Below, in pieces: positions 8,202 through 60,304 of a stretch of 64,000 bases of DNA. Under the pieces are notes generated by a model. It made no database searches, was not told where the DNA came from, and worked only from the letters and a program-made list of their open reading frames with translations. Location: NCBI GenBank assembly GCA_013203185.1, contig JABMOS010000019.1, forward strand, positions 4,405 to 68,404. The letters are read 5' to 3'. The DNA comes from Fidelibacterota bacterium (lineage in GTDB: Bacteria; Fidelibacterota; UBA8477; JABMPR01). Within the stretch, counting starts at the first letter, position 1; every line of letters begins with the position of its first letter. A program made the translations under genes and the position numbers.

Positions 8202-8202
8202 C

Positions 8203-10038: not shown

Positions 10039-10080
10039 GCCCCTAAATCCATACCCACTTCCCACCCCAATTGAGGTAAT

Positions 10081-12024
10081 ATGAAAACTTTTATTGCACC
10101 ATCGCTTCTTGTCCTTTTCTTCATTGAGTTGCTTATCTCCTGCTCAGGCTCCAGCTTCAATTCTGATATCTGGGATAAGCATCCCTCAGAAAATTTTAAA
10201 CGGACCCAATCACCCTTTCCAGATAGCCCGGATGCCGTCGTCATTTTCGATAGAGAGGAAATCAAAGTTGACCCAGTTTATCATGACTTGCTGCACAAGA
10301 GGTATGTTCGTATACAAATATTCAGTGAAGCTGGGAAGGAGCATGCTAACATTGAAATTCCATATTGGTATTCAGATAAGATCTATGATATAAGGGCTCA
10401 AACAATCCTACCTGACGGCAGAAAGATCCAGCTGGATCCTGCTGATATATTTGACAAGGGGGTTGAAACTGGCTGGAGATATAAAACCTTTGCATTACCT
10501 GGTGTGGCGGCAAACTGTATTATTGATTACCAATATAGGGTACGGGACACCAATGCCAATTTTATCGGCCCAAAGTATTTTCAGAGTCAACTTTTTACTG
10601 AATATTCAAAACTGGTTTTGAGCATTCCTGATGAATACACCTATAACATCGCAGCATTGAATGCGCCTGCAGATTATATAGACCCAGAGGGTAAACTTCA
10701 TGCACTTACCCACAATGAGTATGAAAAGATCTATACATGGGAGTATAACAATCTTCACCCCATCAAAGATGTGGAGCACCTCTATAATTTGCCTGACCAA
10801 CTCTTCTCCCTGCATATGCAGATGGCTGTTTCCAGCCATCTGCCAATAGAAAAATCATTTTCGGAGCAATGGAGCAAACTTATTGAAATTTTGGTTGATC
10901 ATTATGACTCTTATCTTGACCCTGGGAATCGACTAAATGACCTTCTGGCAGAGGTTCCCATCTCGGATTCTGCTTCAGGAGTTTCTCCCAAGGATATCTA
11001 CCAATTCGTAAGGGATAATTTCGACCGGGAGCATTATTCTGGTATTATCACGGAGGAATTATCAGATGTGCTCAAGGAAAGGGCTGGAACAAAAGTTGAG
11101 AAGAATTTTTTAACGATTTCCCTATTACGTGTTGCTGGCTTTGAGGCTGACCCAGTTTTCATCAGCAGGCGCTCAAATGGAATCTTAAACGTTGGGTCGC
11201 CTACCCTGGAGAAAATAGATCATGCCCTGGTAAGGGTTAAGGAAAACGACCAATACACATTAATTGATGCCGGAAATGATTACGCCAGCTTCGATTATAT
11301 GCCAGCTGATAATTACTCTGGTATTGGTTTAATTCTAAGCTCGAATCCAGACTCAATTTTTTACCAATTCCCAGTGCGTCCCAAAGCCAGTCGAGAAGAC
11401 ATACTCACAACTGCGACAATTGATGATGACGGTAATCTTATAGGATCATTTGCTGTTCGGGCTACTGGCTTTTTTGCAGCTGAGATGAGGGAATTTTACT
11501 CGCTAACTGCAGAAGATAGCGCAAAGAGAAGTGCCCACTTTGCCAGGCTGATGCCGGAAATTCTGGTGGATAGTATTTCTCACAACACATCTCTAACGGA
11601 TCATGATAAAGCCATGACAACAACGGTCCACTTCCAAATACCTGGATTCTTAGATCTTTCAGGAGACCTCTGCTATGTCCCCACTACATATTACGGCAGG
11701 TTTGAGGCCAATGACTTAACTGCGGAAAAACGTGAACTTCCAGTTCAATTTGATTTCCCCTTTCATGTAAGAGAGACTGTTACAATTAATCTCCCTGCAA
11801 ACTGGGAAATAATAGAACTACCGAAAAATGTGAGTCTGAAAGGGCCGGGTATTGGATTTCAAAAACTATTTATGTCTCAAACAAATGGGTTCCAATTACT
11901 CTGGAGTTCACAGCTTGTAAAACTTCAACACCCCAATTCTAATTATCCAGTTTTGAAAAATTATTTCACCGAAGCTGTTGCCATAGATCAAAACAAGATC
12001 GTGGTGCGCAGGAAAAATCCATAG
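10081..12024 (+). CDS. DUF3857/transglutaminase-like lipoprotein, catalytic Cys replaced (pseudo-enzyme paralogue A-prime)
   Basis: Lipoprotein-type signal (ELLISC). Colinear with 6258..8201 over the full length, e.g. SPDAVVIFD / RYVRIQIFSEAGKE / AQTILPDGRKIQL / FALPGV. Core ERAGTKVEKNFLTISLLRVAGFEADPVFISRR...IDHALVRV...LIDAG has Lys in place of Cys. Confidence 0.65.
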   Translation: MKTFIAPSLLVLFFIELLISCSGSSFNSDIWDKHPSENFKRTQSPFPDSPDAVVIFDREEIKVDPVYHDLLHKRYVRIQIFSEAGKEHANIEIPYWYSDKIYDIRAQTILPDGRKIQLDPADIFDKGVETGWRYKTFALPGVAANCIIDYQYRVRDTNANFIGPKYFQSQLFTEYSKLVLSIPDEYTYNIAALNAPADYIDPEGKLHALTHNEYEKIYTWEYNNLHPIKDVEHLYNLPDQLFSLHMQMAVSSHLPIEKSFSEQWSKLIEILVDHYDSYLDPGNRLNDLLAEVPISDSASGVSPKDIYQFVRDNFDREHYSGIITEELSDVLKERAGTKVEKNFLTISLLRVAGFEADPVFISRRSNGILNVGSPTLEKIDHALVRVKENDQYTLIDAGNDYASFDYMPADNYSGIGLILSSNPDSIFYQFPVRPKASREDILTTATIDDDGNLIGSFAVRATGFFAAEMREFYSLTAEDSAKRSAHFARLMPEILVDSISHNTSLTDHDKAMTTTVHFQIPGFLDLSGDLCYVPTTYYGRFEANDLTAEKRELPVQFDFPFHVRETVTINLPANWEIIELPKNVSLKGPGIGFQKLFMSQTNGFQLLWSSQLVKLQHPNSNYPVLKNYFTEAVAIDQNKIVVRRKNP

Positions 12025-23454: not shown

Positions 23455-24069
23455 ATGACTTTGGACAAAAAGGAATTACGTAAAGAACAACACCGGCTGG
23501 AAATACTACAGACAGCTGAACGGATCTTTGCCCGTCAGGGATATCATACCACCACCATGGAAGCGGTGGCTGAGGAGTGCGGCTGGAGTAAGGGCACACT
23601 CTATCTCTACTTTAAAAGCAAGGAAGACTTATTTTTCTCAGTCTTATTTGAAAAGCTGGATCGATTCTCGGCTGCGCTACTGGCTGACTTAAAAGCCTCA
23701 GAAGGTGTAGAGGGAAAAATTAGAGGCCTCATTGATGCCCAATTCAGTTTTTTTACAGAAAATAAACACTTTTTTCAACTGGTCATCACCGAACAGGCGA
23801 AAGTCATGCACTCCTCAAATTCAGGTCTCAGGGAAGAGCTCATCCAGAAGCAACACTCCCATATCAATGAGATTTCCCAGGCATTGAGCGAGGGAATGAG
23901 AGATGACACATCTGTTCACGCATCAATACTCGCTGGAAGCATTGTCGGCGCAGTTAATCTTCACCTGGTATCCTGGCTCATGGCGCCCGAATCCATGGAT
24001 GTAGATTATTTAAAATCTCAAATCACCACACTATTCGTAAATGGAATATCTGCACATGAAAATATTTAG
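23455..24069 (+). CDS. TetR/AcrR family transcriptional regulator
   Basis: N-terminal HTH ILQTAERIFARQGYHTTTMEAVAEECGWSKGTLYLYFKSKEDLF; ~200 aa. First gene of the efflux operon. Confidence 0.9.
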   Translation: MTLDKKELRKEQHRLEILQTAERIFARQGYHTTTMEAVAEECGWSKGTLYLYFKSKEDLFFSVLFEKLDRFSAALLADLKASEGVEGKIRGLIDAQFSFFTENKHFFQLVITEQAKVMHSSNSGLREELIQKQHSHINEISQALSEGMRDDTSVHASILAGSIVGAVNLHLVSWLMAPESMDVDYLKSQITTLFVNGISAHENI

Positions 24070-25414
24070 ATTAATCCTGTTTCTCCCGCTCCTCCTGGGA
24101 GCACAAAACCAGAAAGCCCTCTCCATAGAAGAAAGCATTCACATGGCCCTGGAAAGAAACCCCAATATAAAAATGGCTCAGGAGAGGATAAATGATGCAA
24201 AGCAAAATGTTTATCAAGCACTTGGAACTGCCCTCCCGTCGGCAAGTTTCCAGGGTAGCCAGATCCTCGATGAAACCGTAAGACCCATTGATAACTTCTT
24301 CTATGTGCCTGGAGTGGTCCCTGACCCTGCCAACCCCATCACATTTCTCATGACAAATCCAACCTTGGATTTTGATATGACCAATGAATACCAGGTCGAC
24401 TTGCGAGTTACCCAGCCTCTCTTTACTGGTGGAAAAATTGCCCTGGGAACCCTAATGGCTCGAAACGGGTTAAACCTGATTCAATCACAATATGAAGACG
24501 AGAAAAACAATCTATCCTTTAATGTCATTCAAGCTTATTTGGGGATGTTGGTGACCCAGCAATTCCTGGATGTTGCCAATGAGGGCTATGAAACAGCAGT
24601 GGAATTTTTTGATATTTCTACCCTCTTATACGAACAAGGGATGATTTCCAAACTGGATTTGCTCCAGGCAGAAGTGCAAGCCGCTAATCTACTTCCCCAA
24701 AAAACCCAGGCCGAAAATGGGATCACCATGGCAGCTGCAGGCTTAAGAATGCTTCTTGGCCTGGAGCCTGAAACCAAAATTACGCTTACAGATTCCATGT
24801 CCTACAAGCCGGGAACCTATAGTCTGGATGATTTAAGACAGCAGGCTCTCATGAATCGTTCTGAACTCCAACAGCTGGATATCAGCAAATCGTTGAGTTC
24901 ATTGGGGGTTAAAATGGCCATGTCAGACTATTTGCCCACCGTGGCTCTGTCCTGGTCTTACTCCAAGTTTGGAGATGAGCTTGGTACCATGTCTGATTGG
25001 AATACAAGCAATATGCTGGCGGTTGGGGTGAGTTATAATCTCTTCAATGGCGGGATTCGTTTTTCCAAACTGCGTCAAGCCCGGATAGCAGAGCGACAGG
25101 TCAATTATGGCTACGATGCTCTGAAAGATGCCATTCTCCTTGAAGTGGAGCAGGTCTATTTGCGACTCATGGAAGCGGAAAAAAATATCCTGTCCCAGGA
25201 AAAGACAGTGGGGCAGGCTGTGGAAGCTGCTCGTCTGGCTAAAATTCAGTTTCGTGAAGGAACCATCACCAATCTTCAGGCAAATCAGATTCAGATCAAT
25301 CTGACGGTTGCCAAGGCAAACTACTTACAAGCATTATTCAATTACACGCTCGCCGAAGCCAGTATAAAAAAAGTTGTCGGCAAGTCTCTCCAAAATGAAG
25401 GAGCTACAAACTAA
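24056..25414 (+). CDS. TolC-family outer membrane efflux protein
   Basis: Signal peptide MKIFRLILFLPLLLGAQ. Two-repeat OEP architecture (LSIEESIHMALERNPNIKMAQERI..., second repeat LDDLRQQALMNRSELQQLD...). The ORF opens at 24041; 24056 gives a clean signal peptide. Overlaps the tetR stop. Confidence 0.85.
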   Translation: MKIFRLILFLPLLLGAQNQKALSIEESIHMALERNPNIKMAQERINDAKQNVYQALGTALPSASFQGSQILDETVRPIDNFFYVPGVVPDPANPITFLMTNPTLDFDMTNEYQVDLRVTQPLFTGGKIALGTLMARNGLNLIQSQYEDEKNNLSFNVIQAYLGMLVTQQFLDVANEGYETAVEFFDISTLLYEQGMISKLDLLQAEVQAANLLPQKTQAENGITMAAAGLRMLLGLEPETKITLTDSMSYKPGTYSLDDLRQQALMNRSELQQLDISKSLSSLGVKMAMSDYLPTVALSWSYSKFGDELGTMSDWNTSNMLAVGVSYNLFNGGIRFSKLRQARIAERQVNYGYDALKDAILLEVEQVYLRLMEAEKNILSQEKTVGQAVEAARLAKIQFREGTITNLQANQIQINLTVAKANYLQALFNYTLAEASIKKVVGKSLQNEGATN

Positions 25415-26490
25415 TGAAAACACTAAAACTGACCCTCATCCTGAGTCTCGCCTTGTCTCTAATTATTGGTTGCAGCAAAGATGAAGACGCAGATACCGCA
25501 GATGACTGGATCCGCAAGGCAGTTCCTGTTAAGGTAGCCACAGCCCAGGCACAAAACTTTGTCAGCTCTTTGTCTTATAATGGCTCTTTGCTTGCCATTC
25601 AAACCTCTCGGATCATACCAGAGATTCCTGGGAAAATTGAAGCGCTCTATGTCCAGATTGGTGATTATGTCCAGACGGGACAAACTCTGGTTCAAATGGA
25701 TATCAGTACCATGACCCTGCAGCACAAACAAGCGAAGGCTGGTCTTTCTGTAGCTCGGGCCAACCTGGCCGATGCCCAAAAAAACTGGGAGCGGGTTCAG
25801 ACCCTGCGCAGTGAAAATGCAGTTTCCCAACAACAGTTTGAAAAAATGAAACTGGGACTGGATGCTGCTCAGGCACAGATGAGCCAGGCACAAGCAGGCC
25901 TTGATCTTCTCAAAATGCAATTGGATAAAGCCACACTTACCGCCCCCTTTGCTGGCGTCATCACCCAAAGGGGTTTCAATAAAGGAGATTTGTTTAGTCC
26001 GGCCATCATGATGCCTGTTTTTACACTACAAGATGTCTCCTCCATAAAGGTCGAACTTCAGATTACTTCTCAGGAAATCATGAGCATCAAAAAAGGTCAA
26101 AATGCCACATTGAAAGTAGACTATTTGGATGAAGCTGTTCCTGGCAAAGTAACCCTGGTGGGTGTCGCCGCAGACCCCCTTTCAAAAACATTTTTTGTGG
26201 AGTGTCAATTCGACAATCGAACTGGGAATCTACGTGCTGGAACTTTTGGACAAGTGGATATATCCATTGAGGAAATAGAAAATGTCATGGTGGTTCCCCG
26301 GAACTCCGTCATTGATAAATCCCATATGTTTGTTGTTAAGGACAACATGGCCTATCAACGCGACGTTGAAGTACTGCAAACAAGTCTGGAGGAGTTGATT
26401 ATAGGAGCCGGTCTCTCTGAGGGTGAGCAATATGTTACCAGTGGAGCTTTTATTCTCACCGACAGCAGTCTTGTCCAGATTGAGGACTAA
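25414..26490 (+). CDS. RND efflux periplasmic adaptor (MFP/HlyD family)
   Basis: Lipoprotein signal (LIIGC), barrel-sandwich and coiled-coil pattern (GDYVQTGQTLVQMD ... LDKATLTAPFAGVIT). The start overlaps the TolC stop. Confidence 0.9.
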   Translation: MKTLKLTLILSLALSLIIGCSKDEDADTADDWIRKAVPVKVATAQAQNFVSSLSYNGSLLAIQTSRIIPEIPGKIEALYVQIGDYVQTGQTLVQMDISTMTLQHKQAKAGLSVARANLADAQKNWERVQTLRSENAVSQQQFEKMKLGLDAAQAQMSQAQAGLDLLKMQLDKATLTAPFAGVITQRGFNKGDLFSPAIMMPVFTLQDVSSIKVELQITSQEIMSIKKGQNATLKVDYLDEAVPGKVTLVGVAADPLSKTFFVECQFDNRTGNLRAGTFGQVDISIEEIENVMVVPRNSVIDKSHMFVVKDNMAYQRDVEVLQTSLEELIIGAGLSEGEQYVTSGAFILTDSSLVQIED

Positions 26491-26500
26491 GGAGTCTGCC

Positions 26501-29500
26501 ATGAAAATTGTTGATCTATCCGTCGATCGTAAGATCACCGTTACCATGATCACCTTGATTGTGATCCTGGGTGGCATCATTTCATTCACCAAATTGGGTC
26601 TGGATATGCTACCCGATGTTGAATTCCCCATGGTATCTGTGGTCACCGTTTACAGTGGCGCCAGCCCTGAAGATATTGAATCAATTGTTACAAAACCCAT
26701 TGAGCAGGCAATAGCTTCAGTTTCTGGAGTGAAAGGCGTCGTCTCCACCACGGTGGAAGGTATGTCCATGATTGCTGTGGAATTTGAGAGTGGGTCAAAT
26801 CTCGATTTTGCAGCCCAGGATCTCAGAGATCAGCTCGCCATGTTTGCTGACTTCCTACCTGATGACATTCAGACACCCCTAGTCATGAAATTTGATATGT
26901 CTGCCCTGCCCCTGCTGTTTTATGGTGTCACCAGTGAAGAGCGGCCCCTAAACGAGTTGGCCGAGTATATGGACGAAACTGCAGGTTATCGACTGGAACG
27001 CATTGAAGGTGTGGCCTCAGTCATCGTTCAATCACCTGAGGTAAGGGAAATTCAGGTTGAAATCGATCAGCATGCACTGGAAACCTCAGGAATAACCTTG
27101 AATCAGATCATCCAGATGATAGGGTTTGAAAATTTAAACATGCCTGCTGGTCGAATCGTTGAAGATCATAAAGATTTCCTGGTTCGAACCCGGGCTGAAT
27201 TTGCATCCCTGGCTGAAATAGAGGACCTGATTGTAGGGATCTCTCCCACAGGCAATCCTATAAAACTAAGACAAGTGGCAAAGGTTAAGGATACTGTTTC
27301 AGATTTACGCACAGAGATGCGGGTTCAGTCTAAACCAGGTGTCATGATGATTGTCACCAAACAATCTGGGGCAAACACTGTTAAAGTTGCCGATGCAGTT
27401 AAGGCTGAGCTGGCTGAACTGCAGGAAGTTTTACCCAGCGATATTGAGATGCATATCGGGATGGATATGTCCTCCAGTGTGAAGCTCACCGTAAACAGTA
27501 CTGGTCGGACCGCACTATTAGGTGGCGTTCTTGCCATGCTCATGATTTATTTTTTCCTGAGAAATATTCGACCCACACTGGCAGTTGGAATTGCCATTCC
27601 TGTTTCCATCGTCGTTACCTTTATACCGCTTAACGCCGTAGGTTATACCCTTAATCTCCTCACGCTGGGAGGGCTAGCTCTGGGTATAGGTATGCTGGTT
27701 GACAACGCAATTGTAGTTATCGAGAATGTCTTTCGACATCTGGAAGAGGGAAAAAGTCGCAAGGAGGCTGCTCGACTCGGTGCTTCAGAAGTTGGCATGG
27801 CCATCACCGCATCCACACTGACCACTCTGGCCGTATTTCTGCCCATGGCCATGGGCTCAGGTACTGCTGGTCAATTGGTTCGAGGGCTTGCGCTTTCCAT
27901 TTCCTTCTCCTTGTTGGCCTCACTCTTCGTCTCACTCACAATGGTGCCCATGATTGCTTCTGTCTTTTTTAAACCCCGTAGCAAAGTGGATTATACACTC
28001 AAGGCAGATGATTCCTGGATCGTCCGATTAAGAGCAATTTATACTGCAGCACTTACTGTGGTGCTTCAACATCGCTGGAAGACCCTGGGAGCTGCAACTC
28101 TGGCATTCATTATTTCCATGGCACTTATCCCAGTCGTCGGAACTGAATTCATGCCTGAGATGGATCAAGCCATGTTAATGATGAAGATCAAGCTGCCTGT
28201 AGGCTCAGCCCTGGAAGAAACAGACCAGGCAGTGAAGCAAGTGGAAAAAATTGCACTTTCAGAAGATGCCATACAGACCGTGATTGTATCAAATGGTGTC
28301 AATGAAGAAGATCGCGGCCAGAGTGGTGATATGGCCAATGCTGGTTCCCATGAAGGGATGATTATGATGGCTATGAAGCCAAAATCTCAGCGATCTCTTT
28401 CTACTACCATGATTGGTGAAAAAATTCGTGGTGAAATTCCAGCCATGCGTGATGTTACTATTCAGAGCATTGACTTTGGAGCAGCCATGGGTGGTGGTGG
28501 AGCTGATGTGGAAATCCAGGTTTTCGGAAAAGATTTTAAAGTCCTGGAAGAAATCAGCAAGAAGGTCGCCTCCATCATCGCCGAGGTAGAAGGTGTCACC
28601 GACATCAAATCCTCCATGGAAGAAGCAAAGCCTGAATACCATATTGCTTTAAATCGTGAAGAAATTAATCGCATGGGATTGGTCTCAGGACAAGTGGCCA
28701 ACACCATTAAAGCCTCCACCCTGGGTCAAGTAGCCACCCGCTACCGTTTTGCTGGTGACGAAACCAATGTGCGCATCAAATTCCGCGAAGATCAGCGAAA
28801 TTCCATACGCGATATTGGGCAAATCAAACTGACAACTCCCATGAAAACTCAAATCCCACTGGCCCAAGTTGCCTCAATTACCAGGGAAGAGGGACCAGTG
28901 AAGATCATTAGAGATAACCAGAGTCGCATGGTGCTGGTTACCGCCAGCATCCTGGATCGTGATCTGGGATCAGTTATGGAGGAGATCATCGAAATCCTTA
29001 AGCCCATTCAGGCAACTTTACCTGACGGGTATTTTGTGGAGTATGGTGGTCAATATGAGCAAATGATTGACACCTTCATTACTTTAGGTCAGGCTCTGGC
29101 ACTTGCCATCCTCCTCGTATTCATGGTTATGGCATCACAGTTTGAGTCATTGATTCACCCCCTGGTCATCATGGTTACCATTCCTCTGGCGTTGATAGGT
29201 GTGGTTATTGGATTTCTTATATCCGGTGTCACCATCAGTCTTACCAGTTTCATTGGATTCATTCTGCTTACAGGAATTGTGGTGAATAATGGCATTGTGT
29301 TGGTGGATTACATTAATCAATTGCGACGAAAAGGCATCGAGGCGACTGCTGCAATCATAGAAGGGGGATCCACAAGACTTCGCCCTGTCCTCATTACAGC
29401 CCTGACCACTATTTTTGGTATGCTTCCCATGGTTTTAGATTCCAGTGAAGGTGCCAAGATGCGCGCCCCCATGGCCATCACTGTAATTGGTGGATTGACG

Positions 29501-29602
29501 GCAGCAACTTTCCTCACACTGTTTGTAGTTCCTTCGCTCTACAGTCTGCTTGCAGACGCAGGGATTCGAAGAGCTGAAAGGAAGCAGTTGAAAAATGCCT
29601 AG
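26501..29602 (+). CDS. RND (AcrB/HAE1-type) efflux permease
   Basis: Start at 26501 preceded by AAGGAG (26489..26494). MKIVDLSVDRKITVTMITLIV, 12-TM/two-loop architecture, conserved GLALGIGMLVDNAIVVIEN and VVNNGIVLVDYINQLR motifs. The ORF-track start at 26423 is an upstream extension overlapping the MFP gene. Confidence 0.9.
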   Translation: MKIVDLSVDRKITVTMITLIVILGGIISFTKLGLDMLPDVEFPMVSVVTVYSGASPEDIESIVTKPIEQAIASVSGVKGVVSTTVEGMSMIAVEFESGSNLDFAAQDLRDQLAMFADFLPDDIQTPLVMKFDMSALPLLFYGVTSEERPLNELAEYMDETAGYRLERIEGVASVIVQSPEVREIQVEIDQHALETSGITLNQIIQMIGFENLNMPAGRIVEDHKDFLVRTRAEFASLAEIEDLIVGISPTGNPIKLRQVAKVKDTVSDLRTEMRVQSKPGVMMIVTKQSGANTVKVADAVKAELAELQEVLPSDIEMHIGMDMSSSVKLTVNSTGRTALLGGVLAMLMIYFFLRNIRPTLAVGIAIPVSIVVTFIPLNAVGYTLNLLTLGGLALGIGMLVDNAIVVIENVFRHLEEGKSRKEAARLGASEVGMAITASTLTTLAVFLPMAMGSGTAGQLVRGLALSISFSLLASLFVSLTMVPMIASVFFKPRSKVDYTLKADDSWIVRLRAIYTAALTVVLQHRWKTLGAATLAFIISMALIPVVGTEFMPEMDQAMLMMKIKLPVGSALEETDQAVKQVEKIALSEDAIQTVIVSNGVNEEDRGQSGDMANAGSHEGMIMMAMKPKSQRSLSTTMIGEKIRGEIPAMRDVTIQSIDFGAAMGGGGADVEIQVFGKDFKVLEEISKKVASIIAEVEGVTDIKSSMEEAKPEYHIALNREEINRMGLVSGQVANTIKASTLGQVATRYRFAGDETNVRIKFREDQRNSIRDIGQIKLTTPMKTQIPLAQVASITREEGPVKIIRDNQSRMVLVTASILDRDLGSVMEEIIEILKPIQATLPDGYFVEYGGQYEQMIDTFITLGQALALAILLVFMVMASQFESLIHPLVIMVTIPLALIGVVIGFLISGVTISLTSFIGFILLTGIVVNNGIVLVDYINQLRRKGIEATAAIIEGGSTRLRPVLITALTTIFGMLPMVLDSSEGAKMRAPMAITVIGGLTAATFLTLFVVPSLYSLLADAGIRRAERKQLKNA

Positions 29603-29630
29603 CTAGACAGATTTTTTTAACCTTAAATCA

Positions 29631-29659
29631 AAGGGGGTTGATAGTATCAGCCCCTTTTT
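29631..29659 (+). terminator. Rho-independent terminator of the efflux operon
   Basis: AAGGGGGTTGA-tagta-TCAGCCCCTTTTT. Confidence 0.75.
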
Positions 29660-29740
29660 CTTATCAGAAATGTCGTGGAGAATACATTTTCAATCAGGGG
29701 ATAACCTATTTTGTAGCAGAGAATAATTAATGGAGACCCC

Positions 29741-30370
29741 ATGTTCAAACTTTCAAGATCCTACTTCCTCTCAATTCTGTTAACAGCATTTATGGCGACC
29801 TGTGTCTGTGCTCAAGATCAGGTATCAGAAATAAAGGAAACACCTGGTATCGGTGATACCTTCCCCCACTTCCAGCTAACTGACACGGAATACCAATCCG
29901 TCGATTTATACGACTATTTCCAAAGCCAACCGGTTCTGTTGATATATTATCGCGGGGGCTGGTGACCATACTGCAATTTACAGTTGGGTCAACTGTTAGA
30001 AATAGAGGCTGAATTGATTGAATTAGGATATCGTATAGTCGCCGTAAGCCCTGATCGTCCTGCAGAGCTTACAAAGACCATCGACAAAAATGAATTAACC
30101 TATACACTGCTATCTGACAGCACCATGGGAGGTGCCAAATCCCTGGGGATTGCAGAACGATTTGGTAGTGTAAAGGTAGCAGCCTATAAATTAAACAATC
30201 AGAATATTGAGACGGCATCAGGCCAGGATCATCATCTTATACCAGTTCCCAGTGTCTACATCATCGGAAAGGATGGCATTATCCGTTTTGCACATACAGA
30301 TGAAAATCATCGCAGACGAATCGACACGTTTGAAATTTTGTCCAGAGCCCAAAGTCTTATCAAGGATTGA
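29741..30370 (+). CDS. Probable selenoprotein: periplasmic peroxiredoxin-like (AhpC/TSA, PRX_like2-type) redoxin with UGA-encoded Sec in a UxxC motif
   Basis: The ORFs 29741..29965 and 29984..30370 are in the same frame, separated by a single TGA (29963..29965). Read-through gives LLIYYRGGW-U-PYCNLQLGQLLEIEAELIELGYRIVAVSPD, i.e. the RG.WCP.C...L...(I/V)S.D redoxin signature with TGA at the catalytic Cys position. A SECIS-like hairpin follows. Signal peptide at the N-terminus. Confidence 0.6.
29980..29996 (+). promoter_or_regulatory. Candidate bacterial SECIS element
   Basis: ACAGTT-GGGTC-AACTGT: perfect 6-bp stem starting 14 nt after the TGA. The 5-nt apical loop contains GGUC, as in the E. 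coli fdhF SECIS loop. The stem can extend via ATTT/AAAT with a 3-nt bulge. Confidence 0.5.
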
Positions 30371-35421: not shown

Positions 35422-37404
35422 ATGGTGAAAATGAAACAAGCTGAAGCATTAAAAAATTACGCAGCCACCCGCAAAGCCATTGGCTATGTGGAGCGGCAAA
35501 AAGCCAAACCAAAAGATTATAAACGTATCGGTTTTAAGTCAGGCTTGGAAGTTCATCAGCAACTCAAGACCAAGAGCAAACTTTTCTGTCGCTGTCCCGC
35601 TGGCATCTACCATTCAGATGATGATTTTGATGCTGAGGTTATCCGTCATATGCGCCCCACCCTGAGTGAATTGGGTGAATATGATGGCACGGCCCTCATG
35701 GAATTCAAGACCCGCAAGAATATTACCTATCGTCTCAACAACAGGAGTGCTTGCACCTATGAAGTAGATGATACTCCCCCTTTCCACATCGATCCGGAAG
35801 CTTTGGAAATTGCCATAGAAATATCACTCCTCTCCAAACTGAATATTGTTGGTGAAGTTCACATCACCCGAAAACAATATCTGGATGGCAGTATCCCAAC
35901 CGGTTTCCAGAGGACAGCAATTCTTGGTGTGGAGGGAGAGATTCAACTTAAAAATAAAAAAGTGGGCCTCATCCAGCTCAGCATAGAAGAAGATTCATGC
36001 CGGGAAATTTCTGATATTGGTCATGAAAGGATTTACAAAACTGATCGTCTCGGTATGCCTCTCATCGAAACTGTCACCCAGCCAGAGCTGGAAACACCAG
36101 ATGAGCTGGCTGAAGCAGCGGAATACATCCGCTTTTTAAACCGCAGTACCGATAAAGTTCGTACGGGTATGGGGGCAGGTCGGGAAGATGTCAATGTGAG
36201 TTGTGCCGGTGGCAGCAGGGTCGAAATAAAGGGAGTCGCCCACAACAAATGGATCCCTGAACTTTCCCATAATGAAGCATTCCGTCAATGGGCACTCCTG
36301 AACATAAAGAGGCTCATCCATGATCGGGGTATCCAACAAAATAAATGGGTAATGAGCCACAAAGAGATCGATTATTCAATGCCAGAACTTTTGGCATCTC
36401 CTCTGAGAGAGAAACTGAATCGGAGAATGAAAGTCATCGCCATTAATCTTCCGAAACTTAAAGGAATTCTCTCTCACTTTATGCAACCTGGCCACAGTTT
36501 TGCTCATGAGATTAGTCATCGCTTGAAGGTAATCGCCTGTATCGAGCGTCCCAATATGACCCATTCTGAAAGCTTTAATCCACTTCTTAGTGATGAGGAG
36601 CTGGGCAAAATTTCAAAATGGCTGGGAGCTAAGAAAGACGATGCTCAGATTGTGCTCTGGGGACCCGCTGAGGACATTCCCACTGCCCTGGAAACCGTGG
36701 AAGAACGAATCCGTATGGCCTTTGAGGGCGTTCCTGAGGAAACCCGGAAATCCCTGCCTGATGGTACAACCATCTTTGAAAGAGTTCTCCCTGGAAGTGA
36801 TCGCATGTATCCCGACACAGATTCTGCACCCATTCCTCTCACTGTAGAATTCATTGATAAGCTGGGTAAAAATTTACCCCCAGATATTGCTGATCGTTAT
36901 GCGCAGATGAAGGCGTGGGGCATTCCATCGGATACCTGGAAATATCTCCTGAGTAAAAATATGGTCCCCCTCATCGAGAAAATTTGTGAGGGGCATGGCT
37001 ATACCCACAAATTCATTGGATCCTTCCTGGGACATACTTTCAAAAACATTGAGGGAAAACGCGAATTGCACAAAAACTTCTTCTATGAAAAAACCTATGA
37101 GCTGTTTCGCTATATCAAGGAGAAGAAGCTGGAGCCAGGTATTGCTAAGTATATGATGCCAGTGATATATGAATTTCCTGACATGCAGTTTAGCTCAGTA
37201 CTTACCTCTATCCAATTCAGACAGCGCAGTATGACAGACATTATAACTCCGATAAAATTTTTGCATGAAAAGTATCTAGAGAATACACCAGAAGTGAAGC
37301 CAGGAGATGATATAAACTGGCTTATGGGTCAGGTGCATCATCAAGCTATCGGAAATGTGGAAATGGCTGATCTGAGACAAAAGATCGGGACAATAATTAA
37401 ATGA
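35422..37404 (+). CDS. gatE: Glutamyl-tRNA(Gln) amidotransferase subunit E (archaeal-type GatE)
   Basis: Blocks colinear with archaeal GatE as I recall it: GFKSGLEVHQQLKTKSKLFCRCP, RHMRPTLSELGEYD, EVDDTPPFHIDPEALEIAIEISLL, TRKQYLDGSIPTGFQRT, LSIEEDSCRE, YKTDRLGMPLIETVT, GREDVNVS..GGSRVEIKGV, GVPEETRKSLPDGTTIFERVLPGSDRMYPDTD. At 660 aa it is longer than GatB. Confidence 0.8.
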   Translation: MVKMKQAEALKNYAATRKAIGYVERQKAKPKDYKRIGFKSGLEVHQQLKTKSKLFCRCPAGIYHSDDDFDAEVIRHMRPTLSELGEYDGTALMEFKTRKNITYRLNNRSACTYEVDDTPPFHIDPEALEIAIEISLLSKLNIVGEVHITRKQYLDGSIPTGFQRTAILGVEGEIQLKNKKVGLIQLSIEEDSCREISDIGHERIYKTDRLGMPLIETVTQPELETPDELAEAAEYIRFLNRSTDKVRTGMGAGREDVNVSCAGGSRVEIKGVAHNKWIPELSHNEAFRQWALLNIKRLIHDRGIQQNKWVMSHKEIDYSMPELLASPLREKLNRRMKVIAINLPKLKGILSHFMQPGHSFAHEISHRLKVIACIERPNMTHSESFNPLLSDEELGKISKWLGAKKDDAQIVLWGPAEDIPTALETVEERIRMAFEGVPEETRKSLPDGTTIFERVLPGSDRMYPDTDSAPIPLTVEFIDKLGKNLPPDIADRYAQMKAWGIPSDTWKYLLSKNMVPLIEKICEGHGYTHKFIGSFLGHTFKNIEGKRELHKNFFYEKTYELFRYIKEKKLEPGIAKYMMPVIYEFPDMQFSSVLTSIQFRQRSMTDIITPIKFLHEKYLENTPEVKPGDDINWLMGQVHHQAIGNVEMADLRQKIGTIIK

Positions 37405-37527: not shown

Positions 37528-38913
37528 ATGAGTGATGATATTTTTCAGGGGTATAAAGGGGATGCTCTGGCGACTCTGCAGAAATTCAGTGTTCGTGTCT
37601 GGGGTCTGGTTGAAATCCATACCACCCGAGGCACTTTTGATGGAACCGTGCTCCCCCGCTCTGAAAATGATGATGATCAGCATATCGTATTGAAAATCCA
37701 AACGGGCTACAACATTGGTATCGATATTGTGACCATTGAGAAAATGGTTGAAACAGGCTACCAGAAAGCCAATTATAAAATTCCCGAAAAAGCCTTCCCC
37801 TACTCAGATGATAAACCCAATGTGAAACTTTTTGGCACAGGCGGGACCATAGCCTCACGTCTGGACTATCGAACCGGTGCTGTTATCCCAGCCTTTTCTC
37901 CAGGTGAATTATATGGTGCTGTTCCCGAGTTGGCGGATATCTGTAATATCGACACAGAAAAACTATTTGCTGTTTTCAGTGAAAATATGGGTCCTGATCA
38001 GTATATGATTCTGGCAGAAAGCATTGGCAAGGAAATCGCCAACGGCACAGATGGTATTGTCATCGGTCACGGAACCGATACCCTCCACCACACAGCAGCT
38101 GCACTTTCCTTTATGGTCCAGGATTCACCCATCCCAATTATTCTTGTAGGATCGCAACGCTCATCGGATCGACCTTCCTCAGATGCAGCTCTCAATTTGA
38201 TACACGCATCCTATGCAGCCGGGCATGGCGATATTGCAGAAACCCTGGTGTGTATGTTCGGTCCTACTTCAGATGAATATGGCTTCCTCCATCGCGGAAC
38301 CCGAGTCAGAAAAATGCATAGTTCTTATCGCTCGACCTTTCGCACCATTGGCGATACACCGGCTGCCACCGTCACCCGCCAGGGTATCAAGATGATTAAA
38401 ACGGAATACAATCACCGCCGCAAAGACAAGACAGTAAAAATTATTCCCACCTTCAATGAGAAGGTTACCATGCTCTACTATTATCCACACATGAAAGGTG
38501 ATATTGTCGATGCATTGGTAGACGCTGGGTATAAGGGAATTGTGATTGTGGGAACAGGTCTAGGCCATGTTAACCGGGAGCTTTATCCTGCTCTGGAGAG
38601 AGCCAGAGACAAGGGCGTCTCAGTCTTTATGACCCTTCAGACTATCTGGGGTTATGCTCACATGTTCGTCTATGATACGGGTCGGGACATGATGGCCCTT
38701 GGTGTGACACCCCTGGGGAACATGTTGCCTGAGGTCGCCTGGGTCAAACTGGGGTGGGCATTGGGCCAAACAGAGGATCCCATCAAAATCAAAGAAATCA
38801 TGCTCACACCTATCAATGATGATATTACTGAAAGAGAGCCCTATAATGGCTATCTTGTTTATCAGGGTGGTGTGCCTGAGGTTGAAAATTTTGTCCGTAA
38901 ATTCAGGAAATAG
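37528..38913 (+). CDS. gatD: Glutamyl-tRNA(Gln) amidotransferase subunit D (archaeal-type GatD; asparaginase-like)
   Basis: GatD-specific N-terminal domain (GTFDGTVLPRSENDDDQHIVLKIQTGYNIGIDI). Asparaginase motifs FGTGGTIASRLDYRTGAV and GHGTDTLHHTAAALSF, GSQRSSDRPSSDA. 461 aa; adjacent to gatE. Confidence 0.8.
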   Translation: MSDDIFQGYKGDALATLQKFSVRVWGLVEIHTTRGTFDGTVLPRSENDDDQHIVLKIQTGYNIGIDIVTIEKMVETGYQKANYKIPEKAFPYSDDKPNVKLFGTGGTIASRLDYRTGAVIPAFSPGELYGAVPELADICNIDTEKLFAVFSENMGPDQYMILAESIGKEIANGTDGIVIGHGTDTLHHTAAALSFMVQDSPIPIILVGSQRSSDRPSSDAALNLIHASYAAGHGDIAETLVCMFGPTSDEYGFLHRGTRVRKMHSSYRSTFRTIGDTPAATVTRQGIKMIKTEYNHRRKDKTVKIIPTFNEKVTMLYYYPHMKGDIVDALVDAGYKGIVIVGTGLGHVNRELYPALERARDKGVSVFMTLQTIWGYAHMFVYDTGRDMMALGVTPLGNMLPEVAWVKLGWALGQTEDPIKIKEIMLTPINDDITEREPYNGYLVYQGGVPEVENFVRKFRK

Positions 38914-39061
38914 CCAGTGCATATTTGTCTATTAACCCTTCGAGGGCCTCCAGTCTACGCTTTTCAGCTTCGACTTGGCTGGCAGGGAGACAAACTTTTT
39001 ACCCTGCGTCATGCTGAGGTTCTCGAAGCATGAGATTACCATTAATGAAATTATCAAGAAT

Positions 39062-40162
39062 ATGAACATACCAGACCGATCAGAATATCTCAAGGGACTT
39101 GCCCAAACAGGCCAGAAAATCATGGGTGTGTTACCTGCCCTCTATCCCAGAGAGCTACTCTGGGCTTTCGATATTCATGCAGCTGAAATTTGGGATCCAC
39201 CAGGAGAAATACTCCACGCCAATGCCCATTTGCAGACGACTATCTGCCCCGTCGTAAAAAAAAGTCTAGAATTTATCCTCAAGGAACCGCAGACCATTAA
39301 TGCAGGGTACCTCTTCCCCCATACTTGTGACTCCCTTCAAAACCTGGGCACTCAGGTCAAAGACCTTATCGGCGTTTCCCTCCCTATCTACACATTTTAC
39401 AATCCCAAAGGCCGCTTTAACAACACGACGATAAAATATTACCAGGATATCCTCATAAATTTCCAATCTATACTGGAAGCAAGCCATGGACCCCTAGAAC
39501 CAGAGAAACTGAAGGCTGCATGTGTTCTGAGTCATAAAATCGATACCTACCTCATGGTAATCCAACAGGCCCGTATGACAGATCACCTCTCTTTGAGTAA
39601 CCATGAGTATTTCACTCTCATGCGAGCTCAGGAGTACCTGCTCCCTCAAGACTATTTGAGTTTACTTGAACAGGTGAATATTCTCGAGAAACCTGCTGAA
39701 TTTTCAAGAGCAAGACTGATGGTATCGGGAATCTTACCACCACTGCCAGAAATTTTGGTGTTTCTTGATGAATTAGGCGTGAGTATCGTAGCAGATGATT
39801 TACTGGCTGTTAGTCGACGCATTCCAAAATTTGCCATGGATCCCCCTGGTTCACCTCTGGACTATTTGACAGATCGCTTCTTTGTTTTGCCACCCTGCTC
39901 TACCCGTGGGGGAGATCTTGATGAGAGAGTACATTACCTGAGTAATCGTTTGAAAGAGAGTAAAGCTCATGGTCTGCTATTCGACATGGTAAAATTCTGC
40001 GAACCTGAATTGTTTGATCATCGTCTCCTGGTGAAAACCTTTCGAGAACGAAAAACCCCTGTCTTAACCCTGGAAACTGAGCTGGAGGACCACATCTCTG
40101 GTCAGGATAAAACGCGAATAGAAGCATTTACTGAGCGTCTCTTTGAGATAGTTTCAACATGA
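39062..40162 (+). CDS. 2-hydroxyacyl-CoA dehydratase / benzoyl-CoA reductase family subunit (BcrC/BadD/HgdB family)
   Basis: Family-typical pattern (GVLPALYPRELLWAFDIH, HTCDSLQNL, PPCSTRGG, DMVKFCEPELFD). Start moved to 39062 because the 38975 extension runs through an intergenic hairpin/REP-like motif. The stop overlaps the next gene (ATGA). Confidence 0.7.
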   Translation: MNIPDRSEYLKGLAQTGQKIMGVLPALYPRELLWAFDIHAAEIWDPPGEILHANAHLQTTICPVVKKSLEFILKEPQTINAGYLFPHTCDSLQNLGTQVKDLIGVSLPIYTFYNPKGRFNNTTIKYYQDILINFQSILEASHGPLEPEKLKAACVLSHKIDTYLMVIQQARMTDHLSLSNHEYFTLMRAQEYLLPQDYLSLLEQVNILEKPAEFSRARLMVSGILPPLPEILVFLDELGVSIVADDLLAVSRRIPKFAMDPPGSPLDYLTDRFFVLPPCSTRGGDLDERVHYLSNRLKESKAHGLLFDMVKFCEPELFDHRLLVKTFRERKTPVLTLETELEDHISGQDKTRIEAFTERLFEIVST

Positions 40163-41481
40163 GTATCAGAGCAGAATTAAAATATAAAATCATGAAAGAT
40201 TATGGTGCTCCGGTCCTCATGGCATTTCAGAATGTCAGGAGGCGGAAACCCCGTCCCACCCCAGCGGCATTTGGATCACCTTTGGATTCAAATCAACGTT
40301 TAAAAGAAATTCTCAGTCGTCATTACTTTCTCTCCAGGTATGCACCTGGTGTCAAAAAAGTAGCCTGGGTAACCAGTGGCGCTCCAGTGGAACTCCTGCG
40401 AGCCTTTGATTTCTATACCATATATCCTGAAAACCATTCGGCTCTGGTGGGAGCCAAAAAACAGGGTGCTGACTACTGTGGAATTGCCGAAGGAGATGGT
40501 TTTAGCCAGGATTTATGTTCCTATGCCCGTATCGATCTGGGACATATGCTGTCCGGGAAAACGCCGGCTGGAAAGCTTCCCAAACCAGACCTGCTGTTTT
40601 GCTCAAACAACATCTGTCAAACCGTCCTGTATTGGTACAAAGCCATTGCTCATGAACTTGATATTCCTCTGATCCATTTTGATGCTCCCTTTGTTACCAC
40701 GGAGCAGACTGAAGCTGATATTAATTATATGGCTCAGCAACTACAGGATATGATCCCTATCCTTGAGCGGGTATCAGGACGGGTATTTTATCTGAATATT
40801 TTTGAAGAAATCCTAGAGCGCTCCATGGAGACTTCAAAGACCTGGGGTGCCATCCTAGATGCCATGAAGGCTCAACCTGCGCCCATGACTATCTTTGATG
40901 CCTTTGGTCATCTTGCGCCCATCGTTTCCCTCCGTGGACTGCCCGTTGCCCAGGATTACTATCATATATTGATGGATGAGATCAATACGCGAGTCACTCA
41001 GGGAATTGGGGCCATCAGTGATGAGCGCTACCGCTTGATCTGGGACAATATTGCCATCTGGTACAAGGTTCGATTTTTGGCTACCTTTTTTGCTGAGAGA
41101 AAAATGAATTTTGTCACCGCCACCTATACCAATGCCTGGGCTGAGACAACAGGATATCTTGATGTAAAAGATCCCTGGAGGTCAATGGCTAAAACCTATG
41201 GACAAATCATTCTGAATAACAATTTAAAGCATCGTTTGGATTTGATGAAAGGAATGATCAAAACCTATGCAGTAGATGGAATGGTCATGCATTCAACCCG
41301 AAGCTGTAAACCCTATTCTGTGGGTCAATTTGATTTACGCAAAGCCATCACGGCTGACCTCGATCTGCCTGCAGTTATTCTGGATGCTGACATCGCTGAC
41401 GAAAGGGTCTGGTCAGAGCAGCAGATTCAAACTCGCCTGGAAGCCTTTTGTGAAACCCTGGAAGGATCAAAATATGGCTGA
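40159..41481 (+). CDS. 2-hydroxyacyl-CoA dehydratase family subunit (HgdA-like partner subunit)
   Basis: VAWVTSGAPVELLRAFDFYTIYPENH, DLCSYARIDLG, SNNICQTV, VMHSTRSCKPYSVGQ are conserved Cys-containing blocks of the HgdA/HgdB family. Translationally coupled on both sides. Confidence 0.7.
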   Translation: MSIRAELKYKIMKDYGAPVLMAFQNVRRRKPRPTPAAFGSPLDSNQRLKEILSRHYFLSRYAPGVKKVAWVTSGAPVELLRAFDFYTIYPENHSALVGAKKQGADYCGIAEGDGFSQDLCSYARIDLGHMLSGKTPAGKLPKPDLLFCSNNICQTVLYWYKAIAHELDIPLIHFDAPFVTTEQTEADINYMAQQLQDMIPILERVSGRVFYLNIFEEILERSMETSKTWGAILDAMKAQPAPMTIFDAFGHLAPIVSLRGLPVAQDYYHILMDEINTRVTQGIGAISDERYRLIWDNIAIWYKVRFLATFFAERKMNFVTATYTNAWAETTGYLDVKDPWRSMAKTYGQIILNNNLKHRLDLMKGMIKTYAVDGMVMHSTRSCKPYSVGQFDLRKAITADLDLPAVILDADIADERVWSEQQIQTRLEAFCETLEGSKYG

Positions 41482-42283
41482 TCTGTATTTCTCTGGCGTG
41501 GATGTAGGTTCACTCAGTACTGATGTTTCCATCATTGATCATGGAGGGAAGGTGCTTTCTGAAATTGTCATCCCCACAGGTGTCAACGGTTCTGAAGCAG
41601 CTGAACAAGCATTTAACGCTGCCCTGAAACTAGCCGATCTCACCCGGGATAGCATCACAGGCATCACCGCCACGGGCTATGGACGCGCTTCTGTGGCTTT
41701 TGCCACTGGGAAAACGACTGAAATCAGTTGCCATGGTGTTGGTGCCCATCACCTGTTCCCAAAGACAGGCACCGTAATCGATATTGGCGGGCAGGACAGT
41801 AAGGTGATTCAAATTGACAGGCAGGGTCGCATGCTTGATTTTACCATGAACGATAAGTGTGCCGCTGGAACAGGTCGTTTTCTCGAGGTCATGGCCAACC
41901 GCCTGGATCTTAATCTGGATGAATTGAGTAGTCCTCTAAATATTGAAGGAGATTCCGCCCCTATCAGTAGCACTTGTACTGTTTTTGCTGAGAGTGAGGT
42001 CATCTCCTTGCTGGCCAAAAACACCCCGCGCAAAGAAATTGTACATGGTCTGCAACGTTCAATCGTAAACCGGATCTGGAGTATGGTCACCTCAATTGGT
42101 ATTGAAGGCGAAGTGACCTTGACTGGAGGGGTTGCCCATAATAAGGGTCTGGTAGCACTGTTGGAGGAGAAACTGGGCCTTACTTTAAATATTCCAGAAA
42201 ACCCACAGACTGTGGGTGCCCTGGGCGGTGCTCATATAGCCCGTAGAACTTATCAAAACAGTCTGGAAGCAGATTCAATTTAA
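41474..42283 (+). CDS. ATP-dependent [4Fe-4S] activase of the BcrAD/BadFG/HgdC family
   Basis: Start MADLYFSGVDVGSLSTD (ASKHA phosphate-1 motif) at 41474, overlapping the upstream stop (ATGGCTGA). DIGGQDSKVI, cluster-ligand blocks DKCAAGTGRFLE and STCTVFAESEVISL, GGVAHNKGLV. The 41276 ORF start is an out-of-context upstream extension. Confidence 0.85.
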   Translation: MADLYFSGVDVGSLSTDVSIIDHGGKVLSEIVIPTGVNGSEAAEQAFNAALKLADLTRDSITGITATGYGRASVAFATGKTTEISCHGVGAHHLFPKTGTVIDIGGQDSKVIQIDRQGRMLDFTMNDKCAAGTGRFLEVMANRLDLNLDELSSPLNIEGDSAPISSTCTVFAESEVISLLAKNTPRKEIVHGLQRSIVNRIWSMVTSIGIEGEVTLTGGVAHNKGLVALLEEKLGLTLNIPENPQTVGALGGAHIARRTYQNSLEADSI

Positions 42284-53138: not shown

Positions 53139-53147
53139 GACCTCCTT

Positions 53148-53993
53148 ATGACTTCACCGAAAACGCCCTGGAAGCAACTGCTACCCCTCAATGACAATCG
53201 ACTATTAGAGGCCCGAGGACAACTCCACCAGGCTGTTCAACTCCTGACTGCTGTGAATATTTCTTTTGTTGAGCACAAGGCTGATGATAGCCATACAGCA
53301 CTTCTGTGGGATTCTGACTCCCTGACTTTTTTGAGTCAACCCTTTGGACCTGGAAATAATTTTCAGATCGGCTTACGTCCGGAGGATTTAGCGTGCCTTG
53401 TCTTTCAAAATAATGAGATGTTATTAAATCTGAGATTGAATGGAACAACGCTGGAACAGGTTGCTTCAGATTTACAGTTCTTTCTGGAAGACCACGGCCT
53501 CACCAGGAATGTCTTTACCATGGAGAGACATTTTGAATTGCCAGCCTATCCAGATCGCTGGGCCAGTCCCTTCGATACATCGGATCAGGCTGCATTTGAT
53601 GTGCTTTCTAATGCCTATGCCAACGCATATCCAATGATCAATGAAATTGCCCACAAAGATAGCAGGGCTAGCACTCTGTTAACATGGCCCCATCATTTTG
53701 ACATGGCTGTTTTAATGACTCCCAGCGAGGGGAAATCCATCGGTGTGGGTATGTCACCTGGAGATGCCAGCTATACGAAACCCTACTACTATGTAAATAC
53801 TTGGCCTTACCCATCTGATGATCAAGTGAATGATAGACCTCTCACCTTTGGTAAGTGGCACACCGAAGACTGGAAGGGCATGGTCTTAACTCTGGATCAA
53901 ATCGATAATGCGAAAAAACCCGAAGCGCAAAAATCAATAGTGGAAACATTTCTAAAGGACTCCCTACACCACGCAACAGAGATTACTGAGTAA
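53148..53993 (+). CDS. Hypothetical protein inside the egt operon (possibly DUF5996-like, unverified)
   Basis: No signal peptide and no motif I can assign with confidence. Weak resemblance to my recollection of DUF5996 (WPHHFDMAVL, KPYYYVNTWPYP). 9 nt after egtB and 13 nt before the ABC ATPase. Confidence 0.5.
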   Translation: MTSPKTPWKQLLPLNDNRLLEARGQLHQAVQLLTAVNISFVEHKADDSHTALLWDSDSLTFLSQPFGPGNNFQIGLRPEDLACLVFQNNEMLLNLRLNGTTLEQVASDLQFFLEDHGLTRNVFTMERHFELPAYPDRWASPFDTSDQAAFDVLSNAYANAYPMINEIAHKDSRASTLLTWPHHFDMAVLMTPSEGKSIGVGMSPGDASYTKPYYYVNTWPYPSDDQVNDRPLTFGKWHTEDWKGMVLTLDQIDNAKKPEAQKSIVETFLKDSLHHATEITE

Positions 53994-54006
53994 GCCGCCA
54001 TATCGT

Positions 54007-60300: not shown

Positions 60301-60304
60301 ATTG

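Follow-up and report, generated by a model that had tools for sequence, protein, structure and literature searches.

A probable selenocysteine-encoding Prx-like oxidoreductase gene, split in annotation, on a Marinimicrobia contig

Introduction

Peroxiredoxin-like (Prx-like) selenoproteins that carry selenocysteine (Sec, U) in a UxxC motif have been described from several sources: a 'Prx-like protein' with a UXXC motif in the Sargasso Sea selenoproteome (PMC1088965), 'Prx-like 1, pfam00578, UxxC', represented by 225 Sec-type and 2,740 Cys-type sequences in Global Ocean Sampling (GOS) reads, where an adjacent pair of Prx-like and AhpD-like selenoproteins was also found (PMC2398784), and "Prx-like thiol:disulfide oxidoreductase" selenoproteins in Geobacter, Syntrophus and Desulfotalea (PMC1794560). 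A published model of the bacterial selenocysteine insertion sequence (bSECIS) describes a hairpin with a loop of 3–9 nt, a stem of 4–16 bp, a G within the first two loop positions, a UGA-to-loop distance of 16–37 nt and a minimum free energy (MFE) no higher than −7.5 kcal/mol (PMC13188914, Fig. 2A). Earlier work documents this selenoprotein family, the bSECIS model and the problem of misannotation alike (PMC1088965, PMC2398784, PMC13188914, PMC13326102). Here we analyse a redoxin gene, interrupted by an in-frame TGA, at positions 29741–30370 (+) of a 64,000-nt stretch of contig JABMOS010000019.1 (hereafter the window, meaning the whole stretch of DNA analysed).

The redoxin gene adds a Marinimicrobia member to a family of selenoproteins that is already well known, and does not represent a new type of system. 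A first-pass annotation of the same DNA had taken the family to be a known marine Sec/Cys pair, and the published UXXC 'Prx-like protein' (PMC1088965) and 'Prx-like 1' (PMC2398784) bear this out. Literature searches returned no relevant paper joining Marinimicrobia/SAR406 with selenocysteine, selenoprotein or selenophosphate, and no paper found by them assigns the Prx-like UxxC form to Marinimicrobia/SAR406.

Results

The interval 29741–30370 is very probably a genuine Sec-encoding gene for an exported thioredoxin (Trx)-like UxxC oxidoreductase on a Prx scaffold, decoded with a minimal bSECIS and split by annotation. Its features in the window are as follows.

29741–30370 (+), putative complete selenoprotein gene of 209 codons plus stop, for an exported Prx-like (AhpC/TSA fold) UxxC oxidoreductase
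29732–29735 (+), Shine–Dalgarno-like GGAG visible in the sequence 5 nt before the ATG, of presumed function
29741 (+), ATG start of the redoxin gene, from the sequence and the open reading frame (ORF) list
29741–29812 (+), predicted type I signal peptide, MFKLSRSYFLSILLTAFMATCVCA then QDQ, by inspection of the sequence
29963–29965 (+), putative Sec-encoding TGA, residue 75; the column is an invariant Cys in homologues and the TGA is kept in 38 distinct variants
29963–29974 (+), redox motif U-P-Y-C (thioredoxin-like UxxC), from alignments with homologues and BCP
29980–29996 (+), bSECIS-type hairpin with a 6-bp stem (ACAGUU/AACUGU) and loop GGGUC, or a 7-bp stem and loop GGU
29984–29986 (+), TTG inside the hairpin, false start of a 128-aa fragment in gene calls
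30368–30370 (+), genuine stop of the redoxin gene, also TGA; homologues end at the same alignment position

The in-frame TGA lies in the context GGC TGG TGA CCA TAC TGC (G-W-U-P-Y-C), and the frame is open from it to the second TGA at 30368–30370, giving a read-through product of 209 aa (74 + 1 + 134). The first-pass annotation had proposed that two same-frame ORFs parted only by this TGA form one 209-aa protein, that a 17-nt hairpin (ACAGTT-GGGTC-AACTGT) begins 14 nt after it and that the TTG start of the second ORF sits in that hairpin; the sequence and the ORF list agree on the first point, and hairpin and TTG were found at 29980–29996 and 29984–29986. With Cys in place of the stop, residues 37–183 match PF00578 AhpC-TSA (E = 9.6e-26, 90.6 bits, cut-off 26), and relatives align to residues 1–208 in a single tblastn segment that spans the TGA. 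On inspection, the leader consists of a basic N-region and a 13-residue hydrophobic core, with V-C-A preceding Gln, and similar in-frame N-terminal hydrophobic leaders are present across all Sec-type and Cys-type homologues. A signal peptide is predicted from this leader, and the protein would be exported.

Among the 90 loci taken into the tblastn comparison, TGA stands at this column in the window and in L001–L014, and the other 76 loci, which come from other lineages and comprise 75 distinct sequences, have TGC or TGT. Four of the TGA-bearing loci (L011–L014) are genome records, three labelled Neomarinimicrobiota and one Lentisphaeria. A metagenome scan with GGNTGGTGACCNTAYTGYNNNYTNCARYTNGG added 44 further contigs; together with the 15 sequences from the window and L001–L014, these represent 38 distinct TGA-plus-downstream variants, all of which retain the TGA and in which TGA and hairpin repeatedly occur together. 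An alignment that includes 38 full-length homologues shows no variation in Y70-R-G-G-W-C75-P or at C78, and the TGA thus falls on a conserved first Cys, as had been claimed for it. Between the window and its relatives, the ratio of non-synonymous to synonymous substitution rates (dN/dS) is 0.05–0.15 over the 40 codons 5' of the TGA (dS of ~1–2.3) and 0.02–0.14 over the 50 codons 3' of it; purifying selection, strong in the 5' codons, is evident on each side, which indicates that both halves are translated in this frame and that the stop is old.

In a rough neighbour-joining tree, the Sec forms make up two pure clades of 14 and 18 distinct sequences plus one singleton, and the clade of 14 includes the window and the Marinimicrobia genomes. 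One locus, L012 (CAZDVD010000008.1), bears the label 'uncultured Lentisphaeria bacterium', yet the Sec-type redoxin that it encodes shares 81% identity with the window protein and falls within a clade otherwise composed of Neomarinimicrobiota metagenome-assembled genomes (MAGs); this MAG may be taxonomically mislabelled or chimeric.

TGA is otherwise an ordinary stop codon here, including at the end of the redoxin gene itself, and there is no global reassignment: the 45 large ORFs of the window end in TAG (17), TAA (16) or TGA (12). When the whole window was scanned for TGA codons flanked on either side by open frame and accompanied by a bSECIS-like hairpin, position 29963 ranked first and was the sole site within a real coding frame.

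The hairpin agrees with the bSECIS model in its loop (5 nt), stem (6 bp), loop G (GG first) and spacing (20 nt), and the loop GGGUC fits the model pattern N1-G-[G|U]-N-N2 with a G-C closing pair. Over the 38 variants, 92.1% of cells at the six proposed pairs are paired, compared with 11–41% in a control in which the 3' partner was slid by 1–3 nt. Cells changed on both sides number 22, against 5.3 in shuffles, and none of 500 shuffles reached 22. Compensatory changes occur at three of the six pairs (A-U to and from G-C, G-C to and from A-U, U-A to and from C-G), as the following counts over the 38 variants show.

Pair 1: A-U 15, G-C 10, C-G 1, U-A 1
Pair 4: G-C 29, G-U 8, A-U 1
Pair 5: U-A 26, C-G 9

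All six pairs are Watson–Crick in 23 of the 24 distinct variants that encode Leu-Gln-Leu-Gly-Gln-Leu (LQLGQL). Among Marinimicrobia-type sequences, an 18-nt segment, TACAGTTGGGTCAACTGT, is invariant even at synonymous sites; adjoining codons vary freely. Since the hairpin is built from the LQLGQL codons, the RNA signal and the protein sequence constrain one another. Two other candidate folds were rejected: an RNAalifold consensus (−2.56 kcal/mol; different and weak) and the single-sequence MFE fold that pairs UGACC with GGUCA. Each lacks compensatory changes, and the pairs of each break when the loop varies.

At the protein level, alignment to the solved BCP peroxiredoxin 2cx3 places Cys78 on the peroxidatic Cys of PxxxS/TxxC, Sec75 on the Ser/Thr and Arg71 on the Pro; the columns of residues 71 and 75 are invariant (R and C) in full-length homologues. 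Because the peroxidatic Cys corresponds to the second Cys of the motif, the redoxin is not a canonical peroxiredoxin, and on this alignment the predicted Sec occupies the thioredoxin-like N-terminal position of the CxxC motif rather than that of the peroxidatic Cys. The earlier proposal of Sec at the first, nucleophilic Cys of the motif in a peroxiredoxin-like protein holds, with the qualification that this Cys is not the peroxidatic one. Scores against NCBIfam models were below cut-off throughout.

BCP (NF006960): 58.4 bits, cut-off 140
SelL-related (NF040769): 50.6 bits, cut-off 120
ResA: 41.5 bits, cut-off 170
DsbE: 21.8 bits, cut-off 123
PrxQ: 20.8 bits, cut-off 260
PrxU: 20.6 bits, cut-off 270

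The first Cys directly precedes helix 73–83 in an AlphaFold model (pLDDT 92.4) of P0019, a Cys homologue. A Cys directly before a helix is the arrangement of thioredoxin-type CxxC proteins. Foldseek finds this model about as close to BCP/PrxQ as to ResA/TlpA structures, with identities no higher than 23%.

Several results weigh against Sec insertion directed by this hairpin. The genes selA, selB, selD and tRNA-Sec were found neither in the 64-kb window nor in its ~10-kb 3' and 80-bp 5' contig extension (obtained through exact-protein look-ups, for ~74 kb read in total), nor in the fetched loci: ARAGORN detected neither tRNA nor tmRNA genes in the window, and in related loci it detected tRNA-Gln/Glu/Arg only, a Pfam scan of all 44 large ORFs of the window gave no SelA, SelB or SelD domain, and tblastn of E. 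coli SelA/SelB/SelD against the window and all loci (1.6 Mb) returned a single weak GTPase match, in an unrelated Cys-type locus. Rfam gave no match at gathering thresholds across the window and, at E ≤ 10 on 29900–30100 (201 nt), three weak unrelated matches with no SECIS family among them. The hairpin alone folds at −5.7 to −6.2 kcal/mol, weaker than the model threshold of −7.5. Unconstrained, the 48 nt from the UGA have a different MFE fold (−12.2 kcal/mol, with UGACC paired to GGUCA), in which setting the hairpin has a pairing probability of ~0.002. Moreover, the LQLGQL codons are intrinsically self-complementary, Gln and Leu codons being reverse complements, and the sole Cys-type locus that encodes LQLGQL (L015) still forms four Watson–Crick and two G-U pairs. 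Only with the hairpin enforced in a fold of the same 48 nt is −7.9 kcal/mol reached; the hairpins of relatives reach −8.6 to −10 kcal/mol. The alternative UGACC/GGUCA fold shows zero covariation, its pairs breaking where the loop varies, and it needs the UGA and the nucleotides after it, which would be expected to lie inside the ribosome during decoding.

Read-through of the UGA by means other than a Sec system, with the hairpin stimulating near-cognate insertion of Cys or Trp or some other UGA decoding, would yield a full-length protein free of selenium. The failure to find Sec machinery in any of the sequences searched and the lack of an Rfam SECIS match speak for it, but the hairpin obeys the SelB-type bSECIS rules on loop, stem, loop G and spacing and resembles the fdhF minihelix, the recoded site is the redox-active Cys of a CxxC motif, which is the classic Sec position, and selenoproteins of this family are on record (PMC1088965, PMC2398784, PMC1794560). 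Considering also that TGA terminates 12 of 45 ORFs in the window, we regard this explanation as quite unlikely. Alternatively, the lineage might do without canonical SelA/SelB/SelD/tRNA-Sec, with the conserved UGA and GGU-loop hairpin driving some other recoding event; the hairpin could, for example, stimulate incorporation of Cys or a different residue, or a divergent route independent of SelB could be at work. On this reading, which we hold to be very unlikely, the element would imitate a SECIS and act by a new mechanism.

The locus might instead make two products, namely a UGA-terminated 74-aa exported peptide and a 128-aa cytoplasmic protein started at TTG 29984, and the ORFs predicted by gene callers are just these two. 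In a database of 5.8 billion non-redundant proteins, the nearest protein (P0001, 99% identical) is a 128-aa NCBI entry named 'redoxin domain-containing protein', encoded on a contig of 72,892 bp; all matches above ~65% identity are fragments of 114–148 aa covering 52–61% of the query, and matches at 52% identity or less are full length (~190–250 aa) and have Cys. The contigs of relatives carry a separately called ORF of 57–86 aa, 76-aa ones among them, that ends 18 nt ahead of the fragment start, and the window is split likewise, so that the predicted annotation as fragments is borne out by P0001 and by the upstream ORFs of relatives. Such a division would, however, cut the Trx fold ahead of its active-site helix and do away with the CxxC, the signal peptide and two beta-strands; the full-length homologues are all single chains, and the TTG lies within the hairpin with no Shine–Dalgarno-like motif seen just upstream. 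Two independent products are accordingly highly improbable.

Could the hairpin be a by-product of encoding LQLGQL, with any Sec insertion directed by another element? Gln (CAG/CAA) and Leu (CUG/UUG) codons are indeed complementary, the Cys-type L015 forms a weaker hairpin from the same peptide and the thermodynamic MFE is a different fold. Yet in the Sec forms the synonymous choices are complementary in every case, three pairs show compensatory double changes, and one covarying pair uses the first base of the next codon and hence alters the amino acid. Gly-Gln, the source of the loop and the 3' arm, is missing from most of the 75 distinct Cys-form sequences, the mean number of pairs out of six is 4.2 in Cys forms and 5.5 in Sec forms, and the rival fold is free of covariation, which together leave this explanation scarcely credible. 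As for the ideas that the gene is a pseudogene or that the TGA stands in error for TGC/TGT through sequencing or assembly, a lone in-frame stop in a conserved domain does resemble a fresh nonsense mutation and NCBI annotates the 3' fragment only, but translation of both halves around an old stop rules this out: many independent assemblies contribute to the 38 distinct variants that share this TGA, which extend down to ~65% protein identity and occur in two different genomic contexts, and synonymous sites are saturated (dS of at least 1) with dN/dS of 0.05–0.15 either side of it, so that this rival is effectively refuted already.

A second candidate accompanies the redoxin in the sister group of L001, L005 and L099, where a divergently transcribed AhpD-like gene (PF02627, 'peroxidase-related enzyme') lies next to the Prx-like gene. 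It has an in-frame TGA in the motif E-C-H-Y-U (CxxU), and a hairpin, ACGGAG-CGGGU-CUCCGU, starts 10 nt after this TGA with a GGGU loop similar to that of the redoxin. Homology search with the read-through protein confirms the family, whose full-length Cys homologues are ~180 aa. This gene is likely a second selenoprotein, of the sister lineage, and was located as follows.

L001, 2000–2590 (−), AhpD-like gene
L005, ~2000–2590 (−), AhpD-like gene
L099, ~1330–2000 (+), AhpD-like gene
L098, L118 and L128, AhpD-like gene also present

In the window, the redoxin gene follows a cluster encoding TetR, an outer-membrane factor, a membrane-fusion protein and an RND pump (23455–29602) and precedes a convergent gene whose 1,236-aa product has MFS, spermine-synthase and TPR domains. 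A strong terminator-like hairpin (29630–29658; 13 bp, −17.3 kcal/mol, z = −4.4) comes immediately behind the RND transporter gene and is followed by the U-run UUUUUCUU, so that the redoxin gene probably forms a transcription unit of its own. A pattern-based scan for promoters and terminators around the redoxin gene was uninformative and did not report the hairpin at 29630–29665. Synteny in L007–L013 is the same as in the window; the context in the L001/L005/L099 sister group differs, with genes for LeuRS, CutA1, tRNAs, DUF3179 and a rotamase.

29630–29665 (+), terminator-like hairpin and U-run after the RND-pump gene, from folding; presumed terminator

Other genes of the window were recorded in passing. 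A GatE-type gene (35422–37404 (+); NF003107 460.5 against a cut-off of 456, TIGR00134 394 against 320) adjoins a GatD-type gene (37528–38913 (+); NF003217 484 against 310, TIGR02153 483 against 324), forming an archaeal-type Glu-tRNA(Gln) amidotransferase pair on a bacterial (Marinimicrobia) contig. GatDE is usually held to be archaea-specific, and horizontal transfer or contamination should be checked as the origin of the pair. The interval 38975–42283 (+) encodes two HGD-D family subunits and a BcrAD/BadFG-type ATPase, a 2-hydroxyacyl-CoA dehydratase-type system with activator that suggests anaerobic amino-acid fermentation. An ergothioneine-type cluster (51864–57286 (+)) includes EgtB (578 bits on TIGR03440, cut-off 360) and EgtD (363, cut-off 291), which flank a 281-aa protein lacking a family match and an OpuA-type ABC transporter (ATPase at 54007–54759, fused binding protein and permease at 54756–56267). 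On the selenoneine synthase SenA model, the EgtB candidate scores only 338 against a cut-off of 420. Near these genes and a Pyr_redox-type flavoprotein gene (59245–60339) lies a gene for a YtfJ_HI0045 family protein (57780–58394 (+); PF09695, function not known). At the other end of the window, 75–23312 is a dense cluster of secreted-protein genes comprising three S8 subtilases, two of them with a Por_Secre_tail/T9SS sorting or dockerin domain, three paralogous DUF3857/transglutaminase-like proteins (6258–12024), more proteins with T9SS tails and a large He_PIG/FG-GAP/cadherin-like protein; such a gene set would suit a lifestyle based on protein degradation.

Discussion

The evidence favours a single exported Trx-fold oxidoreductase of the AhpC/TSA superfamily with a putative active site Sec75-Pro-Tyr-Cys78. 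With the ribosome at the UGA (29963–29965), the hairpin, 14 nt further on, would sit just outside the mRNA channel, where its GGU-containing loop could be bound by SelB-GTP-Sec-tRNA(Sec), delivering selenocysteine and avoiding termination. The mature protein would probably be periplasmic. Its selenolate, at the N-terminal CxxC position, may act as the nucleophile and Cys78 as the resolving residue, forming a selenenylsulfide, and the redoxin would reduce disulfides and/or peroxides. SelB binding, selenium insertion, export and redox substrate are here predicted from the sequence and its homologues.

The practical value of the finding is annotation. Stored fragments of close relatives lack the signal peptide and the active site, and functional and redox inventories of Marinimicrobia/SAR406 consequently miss the protein. 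The gene points to selenium use in at least this clade, with Sec retained in a redox enzyme that is exported. Deep-ocean and oxygen-minimum-zone waters are widely inhabited by Marinimicrobia/SAR406, and such a use of Sec is relevant to the demand for trace elements there. In addition, the locus offers a compact case of a SECIS lying wholly inside the coding sequence of a conserved peptide, LQLGQL, where exchange of synonymous Leu and Gln codons brings about the covariation.

Among known hairpins, the nearest comparison is the E. coli fdhF SECIS, in its minimal form an upper stem-loop of 17 nt, to which the first-pass annotation had likened the loop; 5,413 E. coli records contain the fdhF sequence used here with 100% identity, and it does fold to a GGUC loop. 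Both are short hairpins within a coding region, with apical loops of GGUC in fdhF and G-GGU-C here, UGA-to-loop distances of 18 and 20 nt, and equal energies (−5.7 kcal/mol for the 19-nt fdhF minihelix and for the hairpin here). Unlike fdhF, the redoxin hairpin has neither a bulged U in the stem nor a conserved lower helix pairing back toward the UGA, and outside the loop the two share no sequence similarity.

Among proteins, BCP/PrxQ (PDB 2cx3, 3hjp) has the same fold: the P0019 model matches 3hjp with TM scores of 0.70 (query-normalised) and 0.89 (target-normalised), and the redoxin sequence matches 2cx3 at E = 5.7e-10. However, the redoxin lacks the PxxxT/SxxC active site, having Arg for Pro and Sec/Cys for Thr/Ser. 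With ResA/TlpA/DsbE it shares a predicted export, the Trx fold and a CxxC at the helix N-terminus, and structural matches to these proteins rank level with those to peroxiredoxins, but its sequence scores far under the ResA and DsbE cut-offs, and its YRGGW-C/U-PYC, SPDRP/TLLSD and HHLLPVP motifs mark a separate family. SelL and SelL-related proteins resemble it in their Prx-like scaffold, in Sec within a CxxC-type motif and in their occurrence in aquatic organisms; the redoxin motif is UxxC whereas that of SelL is UxxU, and NF040769 stays below its cut-off. The closest likeness is to the Prx-like UxxC selenoproteins, which also belong to PF00578, have UxxC in place of the TxxU of Sec-peroxiredoxins, come from marine metagenomes and are far outnumbered by Cys homologues, the presumed identity with the redoxin resting on domain, motif and habitat. 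The Prx-like/AhpD-like pairing of the GOS reads likewise recurs in L001, L005 and L099.

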